This document shows positions 33,933 through 61,197 of a stretch of 64,000 nucleotides of DNA, piece by piece; positions within the stretch are counted from its first letter, which is position 1; every line of letters begins with the position of its first letter. The stretch is from the IMG/VR virus record IMGVR_UViG_3300028412_000003, one strand, 5' to 3'. The position numbers were made by a program, and so were the translations under genes. This DNA comes from a virus (Duplodnaviria; Caudoviricetes). Under the pieces are notes generated by a model that was not told where the DNA came from, ran no database searches, and worked only from the letters and a program-made list of their open reading frames with translations.

Positions 33933-34802
33933 TCATGTTCCCCATGCGTTTCCGAAGACTTCGACATGGAGCCTTGGGGTATATCTCCAACCTTCTTGCA
34001 TCGCAATTTCAACGATTCTATCTTTATTGAGATAATATTCTTCACTTCTTCCACCCAGCGGCATAAGGTAGACAGGACAATTAATACCGGCTTTGCGGTA
34101 AGCATCAACAGCACGACGAACATCTTCCACATCATCGTCATTAGCGACAACAAACTTAAAATACATGTCGCTATTAGGAACATCAAAGTATTGACGAGCA
34201 ATATCAGGCTGTATTGCAGCATTCCAAGATTCGCCGCTAACTGTGAGCTTAGGCGAACATGAGAACGTAATTCGTATGTGGTCTTGATATCCGAAGAACT
34301 CTTTAAGATTTGATTGAAGATGTTGTGTAGTGTTAGTCTCGAAAGTAACATTTTTTAGATCCTTCATGTTAGGATGGTTAAACAACTCAACATACAATTT
34401 TTGCCAACCAAGCAAAGGTTCACCGCCTGTTAAAATAAAATGTATATCTTGTCCATTATCTAAAGACCATTTGCCGGTTGGAGTTAATTTCAATAAATTA
34501 TCAACTACGTCGTTTACTGTTTCATTTTTCATAAAACGTTTAAATTCAGGATAGATACTAGCATAAGTGTCACATCCTGTGTGTATAATCGGAAGGTCTT
34601 CAAATTTTTCATATTGGTCAATACCATTCTCTAGAAGTTGTTCTACTTCTGGATTATATTTTCCAACTTCTTGATCTTTAGGAAGACCAAATTTCTTGCA
34701 TCGAAAATTGCAACCAAAAGTTCGAAGAAATACACTAGGCACTCCAACAAACTTACCTTCACCTTGTATAGAATAAAATGCTTCGCTATATCTTAATTTC
34801 AT
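33933..34802 (-). CDS. queE: 7-carboxy-7-deazaguanine synthase QueE (radical SAM)
   Basis: YSEAFYSIQGEG..GVPSVFLRTFGCNFRC, CDT, LTGGEPL, FETN, SPKL, PRLH; adjacent to folE; start at 34802 by ATGA overlap. Confidence 0.85.
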   Translation of the reverse strand: MKLRYSEAFYSIQGEGKFVGVPSVFLRTFGCNFRCKKFGLPKDQEVGKYNPEVEQLLENGIDQYEKFEDLPIIHTGCDTYASIYPEFKRFMKNETVNDVVDNLLKLTPTGKWSLDNGQDIHFILTGGEPLLGWQKLYVELFNHPNMKDLKNVTFETNTTQHLQSNLKEFFGYQDHIRITFSCSPKLTVSGESWNAAIQPDIARQYFDVPNSDMYFKFVVANDDDVEDVRRAVDAYRKAGINCPVYLMPLGGRSEEYYLNKDRIVEIAMQEGWRYTPRLHVEVFGNAWGT

Positions 34803-35485
34803 CTTGGTGCCCACTGTTGTTGTAGTTTGATGTTATCAAAGAATTCTTGCTTTGTGGCAGGATCATGTTTAAATGCACCTTTTAGCACAGTAGTCTGTGT
34901 CAAACTAGAATGTGCCATTATGCCTCTGTTTTCGCAACATCCGTGAGTTGCTTGTATGTAAACTCCGACATCATTGCTGCCTGTTGCAGAAATTATTTCT
35001 TTTGCAATATCATTACATAATTCTTCTTGTAATGTACCACGTCTTGCACACCATTGTGCAATTCTTGTATATTTGCTGAGTCCTATCAATGTTTCTGCAG
35101 CAATAATTCCAATGTAAGCAACACCTGTAACAGGTTGATGGTGATGCGAGCAAACTGATTTAATTTCACTTCGCACCACCAACATTCCTGTATAACCATC
35201 TTCGACTTCGTTTGGGAACGAAGTTGCATCTGGCATTGGATAATATCTTCCACGCATTAATTCGTGTATATACATTTTCGCTAGTCTTCTACCTGTGTCC
35301 TTGCTATTAGGATCATTTAATCGATCTATAACAAGCGAGTCAAGCACTGCTTCAAATTTTTCTGTGAGCTCGTCAGTTAATTCTTCTAGCTCACCTTCTT
35401 GAATATGTTGGCTGATATTATCTCCAGCCCAATATGTATTACCTTCTTTTAAAATTCTATTCTTAATAATATTAGAGATAGTCAA
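34799..35485 (-). CDS. folE: GTP cyclohydrolase I
   Basis: SVCSHHHQP, GLSKYTRIA, LQEEL, HGCCENRG; TTG start. Confidence 0.92.
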   Translation of the reverse strand: MTISNIIKNRILKEGNTYWAGDNISQHIQEGELEELTDELTEKFEAVLDSLVIDRLNDPNSKDTGRRLAKMYIHELMRGRYYPMPDATSFPNEVEDGYTGMLVVRSEIKSVCSHHHQPVTGVAYIGIIAAETLIGLSKYTRIAQWCARRGTLQEELCNDIAKEIISATGSNDVGVYIQATHGCCENRGIMAHSSLTQTTVLKGAFKHDPATKQEFFDNIKLQQQWAPR

Positions 35486-35568: not shown

Positions 35569-35820
35569 TTAACCGTCAAACCTACTATCTTTTACTTGTT
35601 GTTCAGCCCATGCCTTTTCTTCGGGAGCAACAGTGTTAAATTCAATTACCCGAAATCTTTTCCAAATAGCACCTGCTTCTTTTGCTTCCTGTTCGGAATT
35701 GTAAGTAACAACAATTCTATCACCTACAATACCATTTGGATGTTCGGTTGTTACATAAATCCAATCATCATGGCCTTCTTCATCCTTACTAAACGGTATT
35801 TGTATTGAATATACTTTCAT
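35569..35820 (-). CDS. Hypothetical protein
   Basis: 83-aa ORF. Confidence 0.5.
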   Translation of the reverse strand: MKVYSIQIPFSKDEEGHDDWIYVTTEHPNGIVGDRIVVTYNSEQEAKEAGAIWKRFRVIEFNTVAPEEKAWAEQQVKDSRFDG

Positions 35821-36317
35821 TATTCAGACTCCCAAGGATAAACTAACCAAACGTTTTCTTCGTTCTTATCAATCTCTTCAAATACATAATTAACAGAACC
35901 AAATCCACTTGATATGTTATCGGTCATTACTGCAAAACGAACGTTTCCACCCCATATAGTTCCATCGGTCCATTTACCGTCAAGTGGACAACACGAAGAA
36001 TTCCAATCTTTTTGTATCCATTCAAAAGTAGCACCTTTATCGTTTATGTCATCTACTATAAGTATTTTTTTTCCATTAAACGCATCTTCTGCCATCCAAA
36101 GATTTGATTCAACGTCGTCTGGATTACTTCTAAGGCTAACATTAAGAGTGTGACACGGAATTTGGATAATATGAGACAACATAACTGCGAGTGTAAGTCC
36201 ACCCCTTGTTATACCAACAATATAATCAGGTTTCCATTCATCTCGTAACATTTGTTTGAGAAAAGTGTTACAAGCATCGTCAACGTCGTTCCAGTCATAA
36301 TATTGTTTATTTTTCAC
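35820..36317 (-). CDS. Purine phosphoribosyltransferase (Gpt/Hpt-like type I PRTase)
   Basis: IVGITRGGL, PRPP-binding ILIVDDINDKGAT, C-terminal WLVYPWE; probable GTG start at 36317. Confidence 0.8.
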   Translation of the reverse strand: MKNKQYYDWNDVDDACNTFLKQMLRDEWKPDYIVGITRGGLTLAVMLSHIIQIPCHTLNVSLRSNPDDVESNLWMAEDAFNGKKILIVDDINDKGATFEWIQKDWNSSCCPLDGKWTDGTIWGGNVRFAVMTDNISSGFGSVNYVFEEIDKNEENVWLVYPWESE

Positions 36318-36636
36318 CTTTGATAATCTCCAATGTTTCGTATTTGTTTTTAATTTCAACATACCGAGTACCTGCTCTTTTAAGTTCGGGGTACTTTTCT
36401 TCCATTACAAGATCTCTTTCAACTATTAATAGTCGTTCTTGCAAATTGCGTATAGCTTCATCTACGTTTTCTATATTTGCTGTAGATAGATATGATGAAA
36501 AGAGTACATCAGCGTCTATTCTATCACATCTTATATTACCATTAATTCTCACTTCTGGAATAGAATCAAAGTTATTACGAATAGTATCAGATATTTTTGT
36601 TCCCGAACTTGCTATTGGATTAATTGTTAATCCCAT
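36307..36636 (-). CDS. Hypothetical protein
   Basis: 109-aa ORF. Confidence 0.5.
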   Translation of the reverse strand: MGLTINPIASSGTKISDTIRNNFDSIPEVRINGNIRCDRIDADVLFSSYLSTANIENVDEAIRNLQERLLIVERDLVMEEKYPELKRAGTRYVEIKNKYETLEIIKGEK

Positions 36637-36950
36637 TATATTTCACCTCTGTCTTTTCTTCCATCGTAATCATCTTTTGACATCATATACAATAATTTAA
36701 ATTTTTCATATTGAGAAGCTAATGGAGGATAATGTTCACACATTTCTTTTATCTTTTCGAGTGGAGGCATATAATTTTCAAAATCTATTTCCTTTTCATC
36801 TATACCTGTTTTTATAGTATAAATGATATCAGATGTGTTTATTTTATTGATCGTCATACTAGGCTGATAGTACATATTAAAATCGGTATAATAATTTAAA
36901 TCTGTACTTATATTGAAAACCGTGTCATAGTTCTTATCGCTCGAATTCAT
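36636..36950 (-). CDS. Hypothetical protein
   Basis: 104-aa ORF. Confidence 0.5.
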   Translation of the reverse strand: MNSSDKNYDTVFNISTDLNYYTDFNMYYQPSMTINKINTSDIIYTIKTGIDEKEIDFENYMPPLEKIKEMCEHYPPLASQYEKFKLLYMMSKDDYDGRKDRGEI

Positions 36951-38028
36951 TTATTACCTCGTAAATTCTATCTCCATTAAAGAATTCTTGCTCTAACATC
37001 CTACATTGAATTGCAATTTTAGGAATGTATGTAGAATAATTCTCTATATATTCTTTAATTTGATTTTTAATCAGTTCTTGATTTTCTATATAATTGTCAA
37101 AACTAGAAGTCCAATTAGAAGGATATTTAAAATCATATATTGCCATTTCAGTGTATGAAAGACGATTTGGTACCATTGGAATACAATTAACTTGAAGTCC
37201 TTCATACCAACTTATGCCTAGTGTTTCTTGTAGGTTAGCAGAAAAAACTATTTTAGCTCTTCCTAAGAGATTATAATATTCGTTCTTTGTAAGAGTTTGA
37301 TCTTGACAAACAATAAACTCATATTCTGGCATATGCTGTTTGAGATCACGAAAGATCTCAACTTGTTTTTCGGGTGCAATGCGATGGGGGAAAAGAATTA
37401 AATTTTCTTTTGGCATTCCTTTATATTGTGTTAATGATCCTGATAGATATTCCATCGGCCATCCTGCACGAACAATAGTGTCATTTGCTAATTTAGGATC
37501 AGTTATATCCCATCCTTTACCATTATCCCATCCAAATATTCCATTAGAAAACATTTGGATATGGTAATCGGTTGCAAAGAAGTTATGATCGTAACTGCTG
37601 AACATTGAATGTTCAGCAGAACGAATCCAGGGTTGGTCACCAATTAATCGACCAAGGAAATCTTGTGGATCATAACTTCCTGCATGCCACATCCCACCAA
37701 TTTTAATGTGTATTCCTAGCAAGGAAGCCATATACTTTAATTGTATAACGGTTGGATTCCATGCATCAGTGTACAAGAAATAATCATTATTCTTTATTTG
37801 ACCATTACAAAACAATTCACCAATTTGCATTAACTGATTGCTTTTGTAGATATTAGTTCCGCCAAAGTTTAAAAAGGCACCTGGCGTTGTAGATTGAGGA
37901 ACATCTCCTCCAGAGATTACAACTACTTCTTCAGTTGTTCTCTTTTGTATTTGCTTTGGAAGATACTCTTTCCATTGTTTAGTATAGCGATTATCAACCG
38001 CCTCAATATCTACAATATAAATGGTCAT
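36934..38028 (-). CDS. GT-B fold glycosyltransferase (GT4-like)
   Basis: FPHRIAPEKQ (R..K donor site) and ETLGISWYE (EX7E). Confidence 0.75.
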   Translation of the reverse strand: MTIYIVDIEAVDNRYTKQWKEYLPKQIQKRTTEEVVVISGGDVPQSTTPGAFLNFGGTNIYKSNQLMQIGELFCNGQIKNNDYFLYTDAWNPTVIQLKYMASLLGIHIKIGGMWHAGSYDPQDFLGRLIGDQPWIRSAEHSMFSSYDHNFFATDYHIQMFSNGIFGWDNGKGWDITDPKLANDTIVRAGWPMEYLSGSLTQYKGMPKENLILFPHRIAPEKQVEIFRDLKQHMPEYEFIVCQDQTLTKNEYYNLLGRAKIVFSANLQETLGISWYEGLQVNCIPMVPNRLSYTEMAIYDFKYPSNWTSSFDNYIENQELIKNQIKEYIENYSTYIPKIAIQCRMLEQEFFNGDRIYEVINEFER

Positions 38029-38213
38029 CTCTTGTACCTATTATCTCTTGTTTGCCGTGGTCTACCTTTGCTTCTAGTATAAACCTGGTATGCTCTCCAA
38101 CTATCACTAGAATTCTTATAAAGATCTGCCTCATTAAAAACCTTGCCATTAAAACGACAATAATCTCGGAATTGATCTAAATCATCAAATATCCGTTCGA
38201 GTTCAATTTTCAT
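38025..38213 (-). CDS. Small hypothetical protein
   Basis: MKIELERIFDDLDQFRDYCRF; start moved to 38213. Confidence 0.5.
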   Translation of the reverse strand: MKIELERIFDDLDQFRDYCRFNGKVFNEADLYKNSSDSWRAYQVYTRSKGRPRQTRDNRYKR

Positions 38214-38637
38214 TCTCATCCTTTCTTGGATAAAATAGTGTGGCACCATTTTCGCCGTCTTCTGCTACTTCTATTTCTACAAAGCGACCGGGGTACCTTT
38301 TATTAATTTGCTTATATAAATCATCTGCTATCATTTCGCAAGACCTATGATTTAATTCAAGTTTTTCTTGATATAATGATTCTAACCAACGCTTAAATTG
38401 TATAAATTCAATATCTCTATCGTTGTGAAACACTTCAATTCGAACACGAAAATGAAATAAATGTCTATGTTCGTATCCTAAGAAACTAACATCATATTCA
38501 TCTCCGGTCGCAAGAGCAGCATTAGTGTCTGCTCCGGGATAAAAATGTATTCCTTCTTTCCTAAAAGTAATCCAAATACTTCTTATTGGATCTAAGTTAT
38601 TCTTTTCTGGTTCTTTATTAAACCAATAATTCTTCAT
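38203..38637 (-). CDS. dpdL: QueD-paralog T-fold protein (DpdL-like, putative CDG decarboxylase)
   Basis: FLGYEHRHLF fits the LxxxHRHxF signature I recall for DpdL; RDIEFIQFK, SCEMIA; lies in a deazaguanine locus. The symbol is tentative. Confidence 0.6.
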   Translation of the reverse strand: MKNYWFNKEPEKNNLDPIRSIWITFRKEGIHFYPGADTNAALATGDEYDVSFLGYEHRHLFHFRVRIEVFHNDRDIEFIQFKRWLESLYQEKLELNHRSCEMIADDLYKQINKRYPGRFVEIEVAEDGENGATLFYPRKDENEN

Positions 38638-39170
38638 TATGATATTATCTCGTCTTTTGTATATTTTGACCAGTCTGTAAATACTCGTCTGTCTTGTAAA
38701 TCATGGATTGGATGAACCCATACGCCTGGATTTGATTTACGAAAGTCACTGTCATCTATTTTTAGGCAGGCGTTATAATTTAATGATTTAATGTTTGGTA
38801 TCTTTACACTTATGAGAGGAATAAAACGATCATACTCTCCCCAACAAAACTCAGTTACAAACTCGTGATATTTAATATCATAATCGAGTGTAAACCACAT
38901 TTCACTCTTTGATAGCTCTTTCATTAAATTAGTCCAATATTTTATTTCTTCGTCTGTACCATTTGGTAAAGTAGGATTAAACGATTGATTAGCCCCAAGA
39001 TAAATGTGTTCACAACCTTTTATTCTAGCATATTCTAATATATCTTCTGCTAGTGGTTTCTTAGTAAGAAACAATGTTTTCATTCCATAAGCAGGAGTAT
39101 GTTCTACTTCAACACCTATAAAAGTGGAAACATCATTAGAAGTTACGTTTCCTGAGTATTGTCTTTCCAT
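38637..39170 (-). CDS. Uncharacterised protein in the deazaguanine locus
   Basis: 177-aa ORF coupled between the TGT-like and DpdL-like genes. Confidence 0.6.
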   Translation of the reverse strand: MERQYSGNVTSNDVSTFIGVEVEHTPAYGMKTLFLTKKPLAEDILEYARIKGCEHIYLGANQSFNPTLPNGTDEEIKYWTNLMKELSKSEMWFTLDYDIKYHEFVTEFCWGEYDRFIPLISVKIPNIKSLNYNACLKIDDSDFRKSNPGVWVHPIHDLQDRRVFTDWSKYTKDEIIS

Positions 39171-39337
39171 TGTAATTCTTTCTCTACTTTAAATAATTCA
39201 TCTTTTATTGCTAATTTTTTGATTTTAAGTTTGCTTATTTCTTCTGTAGGCAGTTTATTATTATAAGCGTCTTTCACTTGTTTGTCAAGAATATTATGTT
39301 TTTCAGTTAATGATTCTATACGATTAGTCAAGGTCAT
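39143..39337 (-). CDS. Small coiled-coil protein (DUF465-like)
   Basis: LTEKHNILDKQV..LKIKKLAIKDEL. Confidence 0.55.
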   Translation of the reverse strand: MTLTNRIESLTEKHNILDKQVKDAYNNKLPTEEISKLKIKKLAIKDELFKVEKELQWKDNTQET

Positions 39338-40922
39338 TCTCTAATTTCTCCAATAACTCTTCATTTTCTTCTGTGAAGGTTTCTTCTTGTGTAACAGTTT
39401 CTTCTTCTTCAAAAAGACTATGAAAAAATGTTGTTGAGTTAATGGTCTTCTTACCAATTGCACCTCGTGTACCAGGAATATCCATCCAATATGCACGATG
39501 CTCTTCAACTAACGCTTCTGCCTTTTCTCTGTCGTCTGTAGCAAAAATATCTTCAACTATATCACGAAAAAATTCTCTCTTATAAGTTCGAAACTTCTTT
39601 CCGTGTAATTTCGAAGCAATTAGCATATGTGGAAATGTACCAGAATCACACATTCTATTAGCTTCCTGTACTGCATTGATATGAGACCAAACATTATGTC
39701 CCATTTGTATAGCATATGAAAAGCTGTCCCAAGAAGTTCTTCCTTCTTTACCTATTTTATTTAGGTCTCCCGGCTTATAGATACACACGTCTGATACCCC
39801 TAATCCATCTGTTATAGGAGAATCAACGAAGTCTCTAGTTATTAATACATTGCCGGCTGAATCTTTCTTATCAAAAATACCATCTTGTAAAACAGTATCA
39901 CGAAATCCACGAGGATCAGTTGCATATTTTTTGTTATCAATACTTGGTAACATTCGATATGTCCATTTACCCATAGGTTCTGTTTCAGTCTGTAAATAAA
40001 TTTGTCCATTAGCAGTAGCTAAGAAAGGACTTGCACAATCAAATGTTATTGTATAATTTTCATTATGATGTTTTCGAACTGCACGCTGTATATCTGTTAA
40101 CAAACATGCCCATTCTAATTTTGAAGTACCCAAAAAGTGCATAAAATCATGAACACCCTTTTCTAAATATCCATCAAAACGAAGTGCAATCAAACGCTTT
40201 AACACAAGGTGGACATCACACATATTTTGTCCACCCATTGACCATCCTTCAAAATGTTCATTTGGATATTTCTTTGGATCACAAAAATCACGCATCTGAA
40301 AATACCAATCGTCGGCTTCTTGAAATGTTTCACCCTGCAGAACGTTTAGAAATTTACAATTACCATTTCTATTCTTAATAAAATAATCATTATTAATTCT
40401 AGTAGCGTCAACTGCTCCTTGATATGAATTAATACCTGTTGCCGCTGCACCTGCAGGTGAACGAGCTACCCAGGCCGGAATATCTAATATCATTCCGTAA
40501 TCCATATATTTGTCCATCCAACTAAGAACATCTGTTCTTTTCTTCATTGCTTTAGGACAACTTGGATCCTTCCAATTGCCTTCCCACACTCCCTTACCAA
40601 TCTGGAAACCACCACTGTCACCAAGTACCCAAGAATTTTCACGATCTCTATTTCGGATCATATCTTCTTTAGGTGAATCCTTATTAACATCTAATTCAGC
40701 ATGTCCTGCTGAATAAAGTGACCATTTGTAATGAAATGCTCCTTCTTTTTTATTTAGGTAATTGAGACTTTCAACTCCGTTGTTAAAATTAGAAGGTATA
40801 CGAGTCTTATCTACATATTCACCAAAGCGTTGTTTACCTACATAAGTGGCATAGAAACCACTTAATGCAGGAAGAAAAAACGCATAATCGTTTTGTGTTG
40901 AGGTTAAATCTCTGTTAATCAT
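39324..40922 (-). CDS. dpdA: TGT-superfamily transglycosylase, DpdA-like (deazaguanine insertion)
   Basis: LGDSGGFQ (TGT catalytic Asp motif), NVLQG, GWSMGG, HFLG, TFDCASP; clustered with folE/queE. Confidence 0.78.
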   Translation of the reverse strand: MINRDLTSTQNDYAFFLPALSGFYATYVGKQRFGEYVDKTRIPSNFNNGVESLNYLNKKEGAFHYKWSLYSAGHAELDVNKDSPKEDMIRNRDRENSWVLGDSGGFQIGKGVWEGNWKDPSCPKAMKKRTDVLSWMDKYMDYGMILDIPAWVARSPAGAAATGINSYQGAVDATRINNDYFIKNRNGNCKFLNVLQGETFQEADDWYFQMRDFCDPKKYPNEHFEGWSMGGQNMCDVHLVLKRLIALRFDGYLEKGVHDFMHFLGTSKLEWACLLTDIQRAVRKHHNENYTITFDCASPFLATANGQIYLQTETEPMGKWTYRMLPSIDNKKYATDPRGFRDTVLQDGIFDKKDSAGNVLITRDFVDSPITDGLGVSDVCIYKPGDLNKIGKEGRTSWDSFSYAIQMGHNVWSHINAVQEANRMCDSGTFPHMLIASKLHGKKFRTYKREFFRDIVEDIFATDDREKAEALVEEHRAYWMDIPGTRGAIGKKTINSTTFFHSLFEEEETVTQEETFTEENEELLEKLENDLD

Positions 40923-41650
40923 TTAGCCTGCGCTGGAAGAATATAATCGTATGTAGCTAATCCGCTATCAACAGATATCTTCATTGCGCCCTGATCTGAT
41001 AATCTCATAGTTATCTTACCATCTAAGCTAAGTATAGCAAGGGTTTGAGCAACAGGCCAAGACCATGTGTGCTTTAATTCACCTGTTATATTACTTTGAA
41101 AAATAAATTTTCCTGCATGTGATGATTCATCACCAAATGTCATTACTAATGCACCGTCTTCGGTTTTAACATTAACTATTAATTCATCTGGATTTCCAGC
41201 AGCCTGTAACTTCATTCTTCTTATAGAATCAATAGCGGGTTCAAGTTCAACGTTCCATGTTGCTCCCTTAAACTTCACATTCTTTAATTTTTCTTCAATG
41301 TGAGCTTGATTCATAAATCTATAATCATTTTCAAAATCACCATTTGAATTCTCAAAATGAATATGTGTATTGATAGTTTCTCCCTTTCGAACATCAGTCT
41401 TAATTTCAAGAACACTATCTTTTTCGTATTCTGGATTTTTTAGATGAAAAGCCAGAAGTCCTAAGTTTGGCATGCCAAACGTACCAATAAATTCATCAAC
41501 CTTATTTTTAGTTGCAGCCATTAGTATAACTGTTCTATCTTCAGACATAGTTTCAATTTTAGTCTTGTCTTCTTCGTTTGTCACCTTAACTAGGGATAAG
41601 AACCCCAATGAATGTGTATGCGCTATAATATCTTTAAGTATATCTTTCAT
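40919..41650 (-). CDS. DNA polymerase sliding clamp (gp45/PCNA-like)
   Basis: 243 aa, directly after polB, C-terminal SGLATYDYILPAQ; start moved to MKDILKD (GGAG RBS). Confidence 0.7.
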   Translation of the reverse strand: MKDILKDIIAHTHSLGFLSLVKVTNEEDKTKIETMSEDRTVILMAATKNKVDEFIGTFGMPNLGLLAFHLKNPEYEKDSVLEIKTDVRKGETINTHIHFENSNGDFENDYRFMNQAHIEEKLKNVKFKGATWNVELEPAIDSIRRMKLQAAGNPDELIVNVKTEDGALVMTFGDESSHAGKFIFQSNITGELKHTWSWPVAQTLAILSLDGKITMRLSDQGAMKISVDSGLATYDYILPAQAK

Positions 41651-41672
41651 ATTATTCTCCGTATGATTTATT

Positions 41673-41701
41673 ATATTACTATGAATTTTTCGTATTGTCA
41701 A
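41673..41701 (-). promoter_or_regulatory. Sigma70-type promoter for the clamp-dpdA operon
   Basis: TTGACA-17-TAATAT on the - strand. Confidence 0.55.
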
Positions 41702-41718: not shown

Positions 41719-44385
41719 TTAATCTCCAAAATCAAATAAACTTCCAAATGTTGTGTCTTGTTTTGTAGATTCGATGTCATAATTCAAGACACCTATTAAG
41801 TTATCAATTTTATTATCAATGATAGTATTTTCCATTGCTCTGTCATCAAAAGGTAAATCCTTAAACCATTGCGGTAAGCGTAGTTCGTCTGTTGGAAATG
41901 CAACACTTGTAAATCCTAATGGATTTGGCCTTAGTTTACAAACGATAACTTTCATTCCATCAACTATGTCTTGGCTGTAACGATCACTATTCATTCTTTT
42001 TAAAGTATTCCAATTAAGTGATGCACGAACGTGTCCTGGCATATTTGCCTTTCCTTTTTCTTCTTCTAAATCTCGAAATTTACTTAGGTTGTTAACACGT
42101 TTGGGAGTTCCTTTTTCCCAACCAGGCCGTTCCTTAAATAGACTACGAAAATCTTCAATCTTTTTTAAAATTTCGTTTTCGTCTTTTGTTGTTAAAACCA
42201 TAAGTAGAATATCCTTAAGGAAGTCTTGCATAAAAACCGGAGTATCTGATCGCCGCAAATCTAATCCCATTGCTTTAACCTTACCAATTTGACCGTCTAT
42301 ATCTTTTCTGTTACCGTCGTCGTCAATTACTAGGGCAGCATATCTTTTCTTAGTAATATACAATCCACTCTGTGCAACAATTTCTCTACCTGCTGCAATA
42401 ACACCTGAGCGAGATTTAGGACAATGATATGCATCAGCCATAAATCTAGTAAATGATTTATTTGTTTCTTCTGCTACTTGATCATATAACTGAATTATAC
42501 GTTCCTTTTCCCAAGGAATAGTACCATTGTCTATTTCGTCTTTTAGTATAGGATAAGCACTAAAATAAACAGAATCGGTATCACCGTATATAACAGCCTT
42601 ACCAACGTGGTCATATTCTCCTGTTATTACTTCGTTTGCCTTTGCACTCATATGTTGAACAATTCCTCTACCAGTAAGTGTAGTTGATTGACCAATTCTT
42701 TTATCAAAGAACCTACAACCTGGATTTAAGATAGCACCATATAAGCTATTCAAATTAATCTTCTTAACAAGCTGACGCTTGTCCCAAAAGGCTATTTCGG
42801 TTTTATTGTTGGCATCAATTGCCTTTTTTAATTTTGCTTGTAATTCTTTACGTTCTGAATACCAACGTTTTAGAAGTCCAGGAATGACAGCTTCGAATTC
42901 ATTTGTAAAAATAGTACCATTAGCACTAATCATCCAAGGATTGTTACTATTGAATATAAGTTCGTAGGTTTCTGCACCGCTAAGTACATCAACATCTCCG
43001 TTCTCCCAATCGATGGTAATATCTTTACCTCTATTTTTTTCTATCATATGTTTGTATTCAATAGAACTAAACAATCCTTCCCATGCTCCTGCAAAAGACT
43101 TCTTCTCAAAAGTCATCTTTTCTTTTATATAAGCATCGGTATCGGTTGGTCGTAATTGGCCAACTACTGCTTCCGGAGCCATATTCAATGCACGAATAAC
43201 AGATGGATATAGTGAATTTAAATCCATTGATGCTAACCACATATGCAAGCCTTTCTTTGGATAAGCAACATATGCTCCGGCTGCACTTGAATTCTCTCGG
43301 TCAACAACTGGACGATTAGGAACTACCATTCCTCTATCATGTGCTTCGTTTATGATAGCCTGTTCGGTAACTGCAACTGCTCCCATAGTAGTTTGCAATA
43401 AAACAGTATTAGAATGAGCTAGTTCGTTTGACAAATCAATAAAGCGAAGTTTACGATCAAGTTTATCAAGCAACGAAGTATCTTGTCTGTTATATTCAAT
43501 AAACTTTTTAAAGTCATTATTATATAATTGATCAAGTGTTCCTTCGTATACTGTTTTGTTTTCACCTATTTCAATTTCACCAATAGCATCCAACCGATAA
43601 GAATGTCTTTCTTCATAATTATATTTACGATACAATTCTAAACTATCGAGATGAACTCTGCCAATTAAATCAAATGTTACTGCTTCTTTACCGTATTTTT
43701 CATAGAGTCGTTTCTTTGGAAGTTGATCCCATAAACAAAATCTTCTAGTATCATTCTTACTTAATACTCTTGCAACACGGTTAACTGTATACGGAATATC
43801 ATATCCTTCACTATTCCAACCAGTTAACATATCGGCATCTTCTATTAGATCAAGAAATGCAGATAACATTTCACCTTCGTCACTGTAGAGATAGGTATTA
43901 GGAAAATCTTTAACTTGCTCTTCTGCATCTTTCATACTAAGCCCCTTTGGAGGCATAGCAAGGGTGACTAGTGTATCCATCCATTGTAAACAAACACTAA
44001 TAGCAGTGATTGGCATAAATGGATCACTTGGCTGAGCAAATCCTTTTTCTGGATCAAAGTCAGTCTCAATATCAAAAAATGCAATATTAAGTTCTGGTGC
44101 ATCTGCAGTGAGGTAATTCTCACTTAAACATTGAAAAATAGGATTAATGTCGCTTTCAAATAAAGTTTTGCTTTTATTGATCGCTACTTCTTTTCTAAAT
44201 TCCTTTGTATTTTTACAAACTATTCTTGTTACTGGATCACCGTAAACACTTCGTTGTTTACCAGCTGGATCCTTATAATAGAATGTATATTTAATAGGAT
44301 ATTCTTTAAATATCCTCTTGCCTTCTTTACGTTCAACGACACGAATAATATCCGCATCTCTATCAAACATTGCATCAATGTACAT
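41719..44385 (-). CDS. polB: Family B DNA polymerase
   Basis: ExoI FFDIETD, motif A DLNSLYPS, motif B KINLNSLYG, motif C YGDTDS, KKRYA; no intein visible. Confidence 0.95.
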   Translation of the reverse strand: MYIDAMFDRDADIIRVVERKEGKRIFKEYPIKYTFYYKDPAGKQRSVYGDPVTRIVCKNTKEFRKEVAINKSKTLFESDINPIFQCLSENYLTADAPELNIAFFDIETDFDPEKGFAQPSDPFMPITAISVCLQWMDTLVTLAMPPKGLSMKDAEEQVKDFPNTYLYSDEGEMLSAFLDLIEDADMLTGWNSEGYDIPYTVNRVARVLSKNDTRRFCLWDQLPKKRLYEKYGKEAVTFDLIGRVHLDSLELYRKYNYEERHSYRLDAIGEIEIGENKTVYEGTLDQLYNNDFKKFIEYNRQDTSLLDKLDRKLRFIDLSNELAHSNTVLLQTTMGAVAVTEQAIINEAHDRGMVVPNRPVVDRENSSAAGAYVAYPKKGLHMWLASMDLNSLYPSVIRALNMAPEAVVGQLRPTDTDAYIKEKMTFEKKSFAGAWEGLFSSIEYKHMIEKNRGKDITIDWENGDVDVLSGAETYELIFNSNNPWMISANGTIFTNEFEAVIPGLLKRWYSERKELQAKLKKAIDANNKTEIAFWDKRQLVKKINLNSLYGAILNPGCRFFDKRIGQSTTLTGRGIVQHMSAKANEVITGEYDHVGKAVIYGDTDSVYFSAYPILKDEIDNGTIPWEKERIIQLYDQVAEETNKSFTRFMADAYHCPKSRSGVIAAGREIVAQSGLYITKKRYAALVIDDDGNRKDIDGQIGKVKAMGLDLRRSDTPVFMQDFLKDILLMVLTTKDENEILKKIEDFRSLFKERPGWEKGTPKRVNNLSKFRDLEEEKGKANMPGHVRASLNWNTLKRMNSDRYSQDIVDGMKVIVCKLRPNPLGFTSVAFPTDELRLPQWFKDLPFDDRAMENTIIDNKIDNLIGVLNYDIESTKQDTTFGSLFDFGD

Positions 44386-57146: not shown

Positions 57147-57431
57147 CATTCTAGTTTCTTCGGGAACCATGTCAATAGTAAACGGTGGTTCAAATGTGAG
57201 ATCTATTTCACACGAGGTTGCTCCGGTGTCTTGCATACCTGCTTCTTTTATCATTTCCATAATAAATTCAGCAAAAGGACACATTGGACTAGTTAGTGTA
57301 TGAGTGATCTTTAAGACGTCATCGTTTGTTTCAATATTATATATTAATCCAAGATCGTAAACATTAACAGTTGGCATTTCAGGATCATAAACTTCACGAA
57401 GATTAGATATTACCTTTTCAACATCTATCAT
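57129..57431 (-). CDS. sufT: SufT/PaaD-like (DUF59/MIP18) Fe-S maturation protein
   Basis: VYDPE..VNVYDLGLIY, TLTSPMCP, LTFEPP. Confidence 0.85.
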   Translation of the reverse strand: MIDVEKVISNLREVYDPEMPTVNVYDLGLIYNIETNDDVLKITHTLTSPMCPFAEFIMEMIKEAGMQDTGATSCEIDLTFEPPFTIDMVPEETRMYMGWD

Positions 57432-58294
57432 ACTGCCATCTCTGCATTTATAGCCGAATGATGTTGATAATTTTCTAATTTAAAATCAGATGGAGTTAAT
57501 TTCAATACATCTTCTAATGTTTCAAATTCTGGCATTATGAGTTTAGGTTCTTTGTATGGTTGCCGCGATAATTGTTCGTCAACTGCATCAAGATGGTTTT
57601 GATATATATGAACATCTCCACCATTCCATATAAATTCTCCTACAGTAAATCCTGCAATCTTTGCTATGATATGGGTAAGCAAACTGTAACTAGCGATGTT
57701 AAAAGGAACACCTAAAAACAGATCACAAGACCTTTGGTATAATTGACACGAAAGTTCGTTGTCTAATACATGAAACTGGAATAAACAATGACAAGGAGGT
57801 AATGCCATTAAATCAATTTGATCCGGGTTCCAAGAAGAAACAATGTGTCTTCTACTATTTGGAGCAAGTTCAAGCGAATCAAGAAGTTTTGAAATTTGAT
57901 CTACATGTCCCAACTTTGCATCCCAGTTTCTCCATTGACTACCATATACTGGCCCAAGGTTCTTATCTATATCATTATTGATATAACCAAGTGCTCTTCC
58001 TTGAGCATCTGCATTTGCAGTCCATATAGTATTCTTACCTATTAATTCACCTCTTGGTTTTCCATAGTGTATTTCAGCTAACCTACGTTCATCAGTAGAA
58101 CCTTCAAGCATCCATAATAGTTCGCTTACAACACTCTTCCACGCTAATTTTTTAGTCGTAACTGCTGGGAATGTTTCTCGCAAATCAAATCTCATTTGAT
58201 AACCAAAAACTGTTTTAGCCGGTATATCCGTTCTATTACTTCTCCATTTACCGTTGTCTCTTACATATTCTAAAGCCTTAAGATATTCTATCAT
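57428..58294 (-). CDS. thyA: Thymidylate synthase
   Basis: ELLWML, LGPVYGSQWR, ALPPCH, YQRSCD, GVPFNIASY; start at 58294 by ATGA overlap. Confidence 0.95.
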   Translation of the reverse strand: MIEYLKALEYVRDNGKWRSNRTDIPAKTVFGYQMRFDLRETFPAVTTKKLAWKSVVSELLWMLEGSTDERRLAEIHYGKPRGELIGKNTIWTANADAQGRALGYINNDIDKNLGPVYGSQWRNWDAKLGHVDQISKLLDSLELAPNSRRHIVSSWNPDQIDLMALPPCHCLFQFHVLDNELSCQLYQRSCDLFLGVPFNIASYSLLTHIIAKIAGFTVGEFIWNGGDVHIYQNHLDAVDEQLSRQPYKEPKLIMPEFETLEDVLKLTPSDFKLENYQHHSAINAEMAV

Positions 58295-58773
58295 ATTTTC
58301 TTTTTCTCCCATATTTCAAACGATGCAGTCCTAACATCAGTTATTAATATTTTATTGAAATTTTTATCTATTATATTTAAATCAATAAAAGTATCAGCAT
58401 CAAATTCACCAGGTATACGAGTTAGATAAAGTTGAGATATAACCGGTAATAGATTTTCAAATAAATGTGATCCTCCTATTACCCATATAATAAGATTTGG
58501 AAATTCTTCTTCCAAGTTCTTTATTTCTTCTAACAAGTTTTTACCAATTACTCTAAATGCACCCTCATATATTTCTGGAGATTTTTTAGAAACTACTACA
58601 TTCTTTCGATTTGGTAGAGGAGAACCAAGCCAAGTTTTAGACCCCATAACTACAATGTGTCCGGTTGTTTGGTCCTTAAACCAAGACATGTCTTCTTTAT
58701 TCTTTGGCCACGGTAAACTTTTATTTAGACCAATAGCACCTTTGTCATCACATGCTAGTATAGCTTTAATCAT
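58291..58773 (-). CDS. folA: Dihydrofolate reductase
   Basis: AIG..SLPW, VVMGSKTW, PLPNRKN, VIGG, ADTF. Confidence 0.9.
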   Translation of the reverse strand: MIKAILACDDKGAIGLNKSLPWPKNKEDMSWFKDQTTGHIVVMGSKTWLGSPLPNRKNVVVSKKSPEIYEGAFRVIGKNLLEEIKNLEEEFPNLIIWVIGGSHLFENLLPVISQLYLTRIPGEFDADTFIDLNIIDKNFNKILITDVRTASFEIWEKKKI

Positions 58774-60666: not shown

Positions 60667-61197
60667 TCAAGTGATTAGATTTAGGTCTTTTAATTTTTCA
60701 AATATTTTATGTGGTGCGTTTACATCACCGTCTACTGTTTCATATGACAAGTTTCTTGTCTTAAGAAATTCTATTAAATCTTGATCAATCTTTCGAGCAC
60801 CATCTTCGTTTTGGTTTCTTCCAATCGGATTATATTTCTTAGTTCGGTTAATTAAGAAATTTGTATTTTCGTATTGATTCCAAAGTTCCATTAATAAGGG
60901 CTCATACGTGTCTGAAAGATATCCGGGAAGAGCATAATGTACACCTAACAGCAAAGGACTATCGGTAATTACTAAATCCATATTATGATTTAACAGTCGA
61001 GAGAGCCTTCGGTTCTGTTTTGCCGTAACATAAATTTGGTCGTTTAATATATTATGACGACCTTCCCAAGTCATGTCTTTAGCATATTCGGTTACTAATT
61101 CTACATTATAATCATTAGTCTTAAGTAAATAGAAAAGACCAGACGCAGTAGTAGATTTTCCAGCACCTGGTCCAGCCCAAAGATTAATAACTTTCAT
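60667..61197 (-). CDS. P-loop NTPase/kinase (AAA_28/NadR-like)
   Basis: GPGAGKST, VTEYAK, ITDSPL, GRNQ. Confidence 0.7.
   Translation of the reverse strand: MKVINLWAGPGAGKSTTASGLFYLLKTNDYNVELVTEYAKDMTWEGRHNILNDQIYVTAKQNRRLSRLLNHNMDLVITDSPLLLGVHYALPGYLSDTYEPLLMELWNQYENTNFLINRTKKYNPIGRNQNEDGARKIDQDLIEFLKTRNLSYETVDGDVNAPHKIFEKLKDLNLIT

Follow-up and report, generated by a model that had tools for sequence, protein, structure and literature searches.

The 64,000-nucleotide stretch of DNA analysed here (the window) comes from a large, uncultured phage from water, and it also encodes ClpB, DnaJ, PhoH, ThyA, DHFR and a clamp loader, as expected of a large phage. On its minus strand lies a module headed, as in related loci, by a family B DNA polymerase (PolB; 41719..44385, assigned from the ORF translation). 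The polymerase gene is followed by one for a 260-aa protein in the sliding-clamp position (40919..41701), which has no Pfam match and is conserved between PolB and the gene that comes next, that of a putative, divergent DpdA/TGT-like protein of 532 aa (39324..40922), itself without a Pfam match. Beyond some small ORFs are a conserved 177-aa protein (38637..39170), with no match in Pfam, PHROG or NCBIfam, and a DpdL-type T-fold protein (38203..38637; phrog_17812, E 1.8e-33), a QueD paralogue of the type described as DpdL in PMC10516641 and a proposed 7-carboxy-7-deazaguanine (CDG) decarboxylase. Next come a 364-aa protein without a Pfam match (36934..38028), two small ORFs, and the gene of principal interest here, encoding a type I purine phosphoribosyltransferase (PRT; 35820..36317). 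The order closes with an 83-aa ORF (35569..35820) whose ATG overlaps the PRT stop codon (TAATG), the gene for FolE, GTP cyclohydrolase I (34799..35485; PF01227, E 6.8e-38; phrog_2197), which overlaps that of a QueE-like radical SAM enzyme, or 7-carboxy-7-deazaguanine synthase (33933..34814; phrog_2076, E 3e-48, with weak NCBIfam QueE matches), and a 5'-3' exonuclease. Farther along the same strand are ThyA (57428-58312), DHFR (58291-58773) and an AAA_28 P-loop kinase-like protein (60667-61197).

In the complete 329-kb genome of a relative the search for QueC found nothing, and the module therefore probably makes CDG or the decarboxylated form of this base; that genome also yielded no guanylate-kinase-type enzyme, and the cluster of the window no dGTP-removing enzyme. 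The 177-aa protein was considered for a dGTPase or kinase role and yielded no convincing match (AlphaFold2 pLDDT 79.9; Foldseek E above 0.007; VIA Z at most 6.4); its model shows weak partial-barrel resemblances, QueE among them. The AAA_28 protein was considered as a counterpart of the kinase-like genes found at the side of the PRT in immuto and phiST, to which it has no detectable relatedness. Two further gene types were set aside as discriminators between the readings discussed below: the MazG-like genes of relatives are weak matches, below cut-off and distant from the cluster, and only one of five relatives has a nucleoside phosphorylase.

The boundaries of the PRT gene merit comment, as the open frame on the minus strand (35820..36362) extends over 180 aa, with an in-frame ATG at 36362. 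A GGAG stands 10 nt ahead of the GTG at 36317, and this codon overlaps the end of the ORF before it; in addition, homologues are about 165 aa long and their first residue aligns with this GTG. On these grounds 35820-36317, encoding 165 aa, is the best model. An initial sequence-only reading had placed a Gpt/Hpt-like PRT with the motif ILIVDDINDKGAT at this position near folE, and profile, predicted fold and ORF map agree with it. The protein exceeds the curated cut-off of Pfam PF00156 (E 9.5e-14; 51.4 bits against 26.3) and matches phrog_8995, "phosphoribosyl transferase" (E 8e-17). An AlphaFold2 model built from 46 homologues (mean pLDDT 87.6, pTM 0.86) has as its top Foldseek matches the HGXPRT of S. 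solfataricus, the purine PRT of P. horikoshii and the XGPRTs of E. coli, Yersinia and H. pylori, with a probability of 1.00 against 5BQO, 1VDM and 1A95; 1VDM is also the closest solved structure by sequence (E 1e-11). The gene product is thus, by profile, motifs and predicted fold, a type I phosphoribosyltransferase. Its scores against the NCBIfam Gpt equivalog NF006613 (35.7 bits, below the 138-bit cut-off) and against Hpt TIGR01203 (22.5 bits, below 150 bits) classify it, at the level of sequence profiles, as neither a canonical Gpt nor a canonical Hpt.

Compared with the XGPRT/Gpt and archaeal HGXPRT enzymes (1A95/1NUL; GpT-2, 4Z1O/5BQO; PH0095, 1VDM), the window PRT has the same fold and size class and shares the RGG loop, the DD-x-x-D-T-G PRPP motif and the C-terminal W-x-x-x-P-W stacking motif. 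It differs in being encoded in a DNA-modification module rather than a salvage operon and, with respect to E. coli Gpt, in having only 19% identity, an Asn at the position of Lys115, an Arg in place of the loop Tyr, and an insert of about 20 residues (DW..C.P..W..VWGNNVR) that is peculiar to the window family. Alignment with E. coli Gpt shows R38-G39-G40, D89-D90, D93, T97 and the stacking W157 to be common to both. The PRPP motif and the TRGG pyrophosphate loop are present, with D89, D90, T97, R38, G39 and G40 invariant; across a set of 135 unique viral PRT sequences there is essentially no variation at the two ribose-binding Asp residues or the stacking Trp, and D93 is invariant in all 135. 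The purine-site residues of E. coli Gpt are the catalytic Asp D92, the stacking Trp W134 and Lys115, and the first two of these are retained. With its PRPP-site residues and the Asp and Trp of the purine site kept, the enzyme looks intact, as far as can be judged from its sequence. In HGPRT and XGPRT, the equivalent of D93 makes contact with N7 of the purine. Since 7-deazapurines have no N7, the invariance of D93 favours a true purine as substrate. The Lys115 column is less readily interpreted: it holds an invariant Asn in the window family and Lys or Arg in other PRT groups, and does not cleanly track the product of the pathway, as phiST has Lys and the window Asn, both with DpdL. Among the viral loci examined, PRTs of the Asn type were found solely alongside deazaguanine genes.

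The association of the PRT with deazaguanine genes is extensive. Close relatives of the protein occur on 414 IMG/VR contigs, and in the best 80 of these the whole module is syntenic, with FolE, QueE and the DpdA-like gene conserved together with the PRT and FolE sometimes on its opposite side. A homologue of the 364-aa protein is present in 69 of the 80 and one of the 83-aa ORF in none. To obtain loci by a selection independent of the PRT, 79 were fetched with the DpdL-type protein; 40 of them include DpdL, FolE and QueE, and 38 of these 40 have a PRT. Two related loci without a PRT (L334 and L350) also lack the 364-aa homologue and have a different ORF of about 395 aa in its stead; the PRT and 364-aa genes may be gained and lost together. 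The StAshley and BUCT proteins retrieved a further 105 viral loci of greater distance, and 81 of them carry deazaguanine genes within 10 kb of the PRT, in at least five gene orders (DpdL in 58, QueC in 6). Linkage to deazaguanine genes, whose absence from other genomes had been named as the finding that would count against the sequence-only reading, is strongly confirmed, and the PRT therefore belongs to the modification system. FolE is the deazaguanine gene nearest to the PRT in 95 of 161 loci, and compact cassettes consist solely of QueE, QueD, PRT, FolE, DpdL and DpdA, with kinase and dGTPase absent.

The pairing extends to named phages. Megablast of the window locus against GenBank phages gave zero matches, and tblastn with the PRT matched Cellulophaga phages phiST, phi13:1 and phi19:2, Flavobacterium immuto phages, Campylobacter CP220-type phages, Brevundimonas StAshley and MaInes, and Synechococcus BUCT-ZZ01. 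All of these matches are confined to deazaguanine-type phages, with the exception of one record (MT835497.1, "Bacteriophage sp.") that looks bacterial, encoding a BCCT transporter, an NAD-binding protein and a full-length cellular-type PRT, and was set aside. Gene orders vary: dNMP kinase-FolE-PRT in StAshley; QueE-PRT-x-QueD-FolE in BUCT-ZZ01; QueE-x-x-PRT-FolE...DpdA3 in immuto, with a MazG/PRA-PH-like gene in the cluster; and PRT-x-radical SAM in CP220. The phiST PRT has a dNMP-kinase-like ORF and ribonucleotide reductase after it, and some 15 kb separate it from the DpdA3 gene; used as a query for related loci, it returned none. In Vibrio phage 033B and relatives, and in three IMG/VR loci (L198-L200), a PRT domain without the flexible loop is fused to the N-terminus of FolE; the 033B gene, annotated folE (L168, 5821-6723), encodes about 107 aa of PRT (RGG, VFVDDIIDSGAT, WVVFPWE) followed by GTP cyclohydrolase I (Pfam residues 117-293). 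A canonical GMP reductase lies inside the deazaguanine clusters of seven loci, alongside the PRT in four (L350, 14121-15161; also L347, L346, L229, L245, L267 and L210; E 1e-144 to human GMPR1). ToyE and TubD, of antibiotic pathways, are likewise GMP reductase homologues.

A DpdA-like gene was found in every PRT-bearing system checked that was complete enough for a judgement. A putative one occurs together with the PRT in the lineage of the window, in immuto and 033B, and in many IMG/VR cassettes; StAshley has a single tentative candidate, an unannotated 266-aa protein; and phiST and CP220 encode DpdA3 (Cui et al. 2023, PMC10516641). The nearest relatives of the window version, 37% identical to it, are hypothetical proteins encoded by the PA5oct group of Pseudomonas jumbo phages and by Sinorhizobium phage Phosso, and it resembles the PA5oct-group proteins rather than DpdA3. 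The window DpdL-type protein, which by tblastn has matches in phiST, ACP17 and the PA5oct group, is 63-70% identical to the PA5oct-group and Phosso proteins. No PRT match was obtained by tblastn in the PA5oct group and Phosso, or in most DpdL phages of copiotroph hosts.

These distributions are of interest in relation to how some phages swap every guanine for a 7-deazaguanine, for which the published schemes use DpdA alone. Complete replacement is represented by three cases, phiST (dDG), CP220 (dADG) and immuto (fdPreQ1) (Cui 2023, PMC10516641), and a homologous PRT is encoded in all three groups. Common to these systems and that of the window are FolE and QueE, a T-fold protein of the DpdL type and a DpdA-like enzyme next to the polymerase. 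No role is assigned to the PRT in the pathways as published. The term "phosphoribosyltransferase" is absent from Cui 2023 (PMC10516641) and Hutinet 2019, and a literature search for PRTs in connection with phage deazaguanine, DpdA, PRPP, Firehammervirus and YhhQ yielded nothing relevant. The pairing of PRT and deazaguanine genes recurs in hundreds of phages and is undiscussed in the literature examined. The PRT is a candidate for a missing helper in complete replacement, acting either by removal and recycling of guanine or by synthesis of a modified nucleotide.

The nearest cellular homologues are 31-40% identical to the window PRT and fall into two clades, from Sphingomonadales and from marine Bacteroidota, with no FolE or QueE near the PRT in either. 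In all 24 Bacteroidota-type loci (L096-L159; for example L104, 7995-8453 and 8473-9063) a same-strand gene for a YhhQ-family transporter comes directly after the PRT gene, with -4 to +54 nt between the two; the transporter passes the cut-off of TIGR00697, "queuosine precursor transporter". The Sphingomonadales loci (L093-L167; for example L118, 7752-8438) have no YhhQ neighbour, and their PRT is often near a protein of about 474 aa without a family match. In a tree the window family groups, with moderate support, with the Bacteroidota YhhQ-linked clade, and the StAshley, immuto and FolE-fusion PRTs lie nearer E. coli Gpt; this split placement argues that PRTs were probably recruited by phages at least twice. 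Five genomes carrying the cellular gene lack QueC and canonical Hpt, Gpt and Xpt, with TGT present in four and PyrR-type genes as their other PRT-like genes. Among 81 sampled Flavobacteriaceae genomes, 64 have a canonical Hpt, and the three PRT carriers are all among the 17 that lack it. The cellular relatives therefore look like stand-ins for Hpt. They may be guanine/hypoxanthine enzymes paired with an importer of guanine-like bases or, alternatively, may act on imported deazaguanine. A search of Rfam upstream of the PRT-YhhQ operon gave no purine or preQ1 riboswitch. The operon points to a pair of genes, as yet unstudied, for purine or deazapurine salvage in streamlined marine Bacteroidota.

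The reading that we favour, tentatively and at somewhat less than even confidence, is that the PRT is a 6-oxopurine-type accessory enzyme that recycles free guanine for the 7-deazaguanine module. From its fold, its intact PRPP-site residues, the Asp and Trp kept in its purine site and its conserved membership in the cassette, which are observed, we infer guanine as the substrate and a closed loop of purines, in the following way. FolE, QueD and QueE would convert GTP to a deazaguanine base, which the DpdA-like transglycosylase would insert into DNA with release of one free guanine per exchange. The PRT would then combine guanine from this exchange, and from degraded host nucleotides, with PRPP to form GMP, and host kinases would return GMP to GTP, the substrate of FolE. 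TGT enzymes re-insert guanine, a property on which the standard exchange assay is based, and free guanine should accordingly compete with the deazaguanine base; its removal would spare DpdA a competitor and could thereby permit very high levels of replacement. Base exchange, which uses a free base and frees guanine, seems to be the shared core of the PRT-bearing systems, since the DpdA-like gene that accompanies the PRT implies that free base is still needed and that guanine is released. The position of FolE, a GTP user, as commonest neighbour and fusion partner fits a return of guanine to the nucleotide pool, as the GMP reductase in some clusters fits the handling of surplus guanine nucleotides. 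Also in favour of recycling are the presence of the PRT in all three fully replacing groups and its not having been found in most DpdL phages of copiotroph hosts, the apparent role of the cellular relatives as Hpt stand-ins, and the failure to find a guanylate-kinase-type enzyme in the complete relative.

Several observations weigh against guanine recycling. Among them are the Gpt score of 35.7 bits against a cut-off of 138, which sets the protein apart from a canonical Gpt, the Asn in the Lys115 column and the insert of about 20 residues. The YhhQ-type transporter co-transcribed with the cellular sister clade means that the substrate could be a deazaguanine, and the presence of Hpt in most Flavobacteriaceae makes a phage copy not obviously needed. 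TubE, moreover, is an example of a CDG-specific PRT with this type of structure.

TubE, from the tubercidin pathway of Streptomyces, is a CDG-specific PRT, decarboxylation following phosphoribosylation, and is the model for the alternative reading with the next best claim, a serious competitor that we rate as less likely. Here the PRT would act as TubE and ToyH (toyocamycin) do, joining CDG or another 7-deazaguanine to PRPP to give a nucleotide that, after DpdL-type decarboxylation, phosphorylation and reduction by ribonucleotide reductase, would be incorporated by PolB before DpdA mops up residual G. The parallels in gene content are considerable. TubE and ToyH are PF00156 enzymes encoded with FolE, QueD and QueE homologues; QueC is absent from the TubE pathway and, judging from the complete relative, from the window type, with decarboxylation placed after CDG; and the phage PRT is found chiefly in cassettes that contain DpdL and lack QueC (of the 105 distant loci, 58 have DpdL and 6 have QueC). 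The link in sequence between TubE and the window PRT is solely TubE's alignment, by its authors, with 4Z1O, which is also the top structural neighbour of the window PRT. The antibiotic clusters differ in having no enzyme for insertion into nucleic acid, as they make free nucleosides, whereas the window module has a conserved DpdA-like gene.

A nucleotide-pool route would also be consistent with the PRT of all three fully substituted phage groups, with the ADG nucleoside reported in CP220-infected cells (Cui 2023, PMC10516641), and with the failure of DpdL plus DpdA3 to make dDG when reconstituted in E. coli (Cui 2023, PMC10516641). The dNMP-kinase-like ORF and ribonucleotide reductase after the phiST PRT, the MazG/PRA-PH-like gene of immuto, the Asn-for-Lys exchange, the insert, the YhhQ-linked sister clade and the confinement of the viral Asn type to deazaguanine loci are compatible with it as well. 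Opposed to this are the DpdA-like gene, which requires free base, in every sufficiently complete system checked; the many DpdL/DpdA phages without a PRT match; the invariance of an N7-contacting Asp in enzymes that would be acting on a base without N7; the compact cassettes without kinase or dGTPase and the complete relative without a guanylate kinase; and the mismatch between pocket residue and pathway product (Lys in phiST, Asn in the window, both with DpdL). The sequence-only reading had offered both roles, and of these the recycling of guanine released by DpdA fits the data better, while the pre-replicative route is less favoured in view of the DpdA-like partner, the invariant N7 Asp, the preference for FolE as neighbour and the failure to find a guanylate kinase or dGTP-removing enzyme. 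Were the pre-replicative route nonetheless correct, it, and not DpdA by itself, would account for the full replacement of G in phages of the phiST, CP220 and immuto types, and the YhhQ-linked cellular clade would be an undescribed family of deazaguanine-salvaging PRTs.

An intermediate proposal, which we regard as unlikely, is that the PRT is promiscuous, taking guanine and at least one 7-deazaguanine, and so both recycles the former and leaks modified base into the nucleotide pool. Guanine and the 7-deazaguanines share the 2-amino-6-oxo face that the PRT fold reads, and in the cellular relatives the YhhQ link (deazaguanine import) and the complementarity with Hpt (purine salvage) both hold; nothing specific supports the proposal, however, and TubE sharply discriminates CDG from 7-deazaguanine. 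Far less probable is a general purine-salvage gene whose position in an early or nucleotide-metabolism region is accidental. Such a gene could account for the 24 of 105 distant viral homologues with no deazaguanine gene within 10 kb and for the phiST PRT, some 15 kb from the DpdA3 gene and beside ribonucleotide reductase, but hardly for linkage in the remaining 81 and in essentially all close loci, through at least five gene orders and fusions, or for GenBank tblastn matches that, one bacterial-looking record apart, are confined to deazaguanine-type phages. Similarly improbable is a non-catalytic sensor, in which FolE or the pathway would be regulated through binding of guanine, PRPP or (p)ppGpp by the PRT fold, a notion prompted by the immuto and FolE-fusion forms without the catalytic flexible loop and by the appearance among the best matches of 5VOG, a PRT-like protein with bound ppGpp, but at odds with the window PRT, which keeps the flexible-loop region with its invariant residues and every catalytic acidic residue.

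The favoured role in guanine recycling and its alternatives are directly testable in culturable carriers of the gene, namely phiST, immuto, CP220, StAshley and BUCT-ZZ01. In the last of these, a Synechococcus phage, the cluster (L084, 9153-16087) has the order QueE-PRT-x-QueD-FolE and, after these, a DpdL-like gene with a GT4-like glycosyltransferase on either side of it, and is a possible culturable model for the type found in the window.
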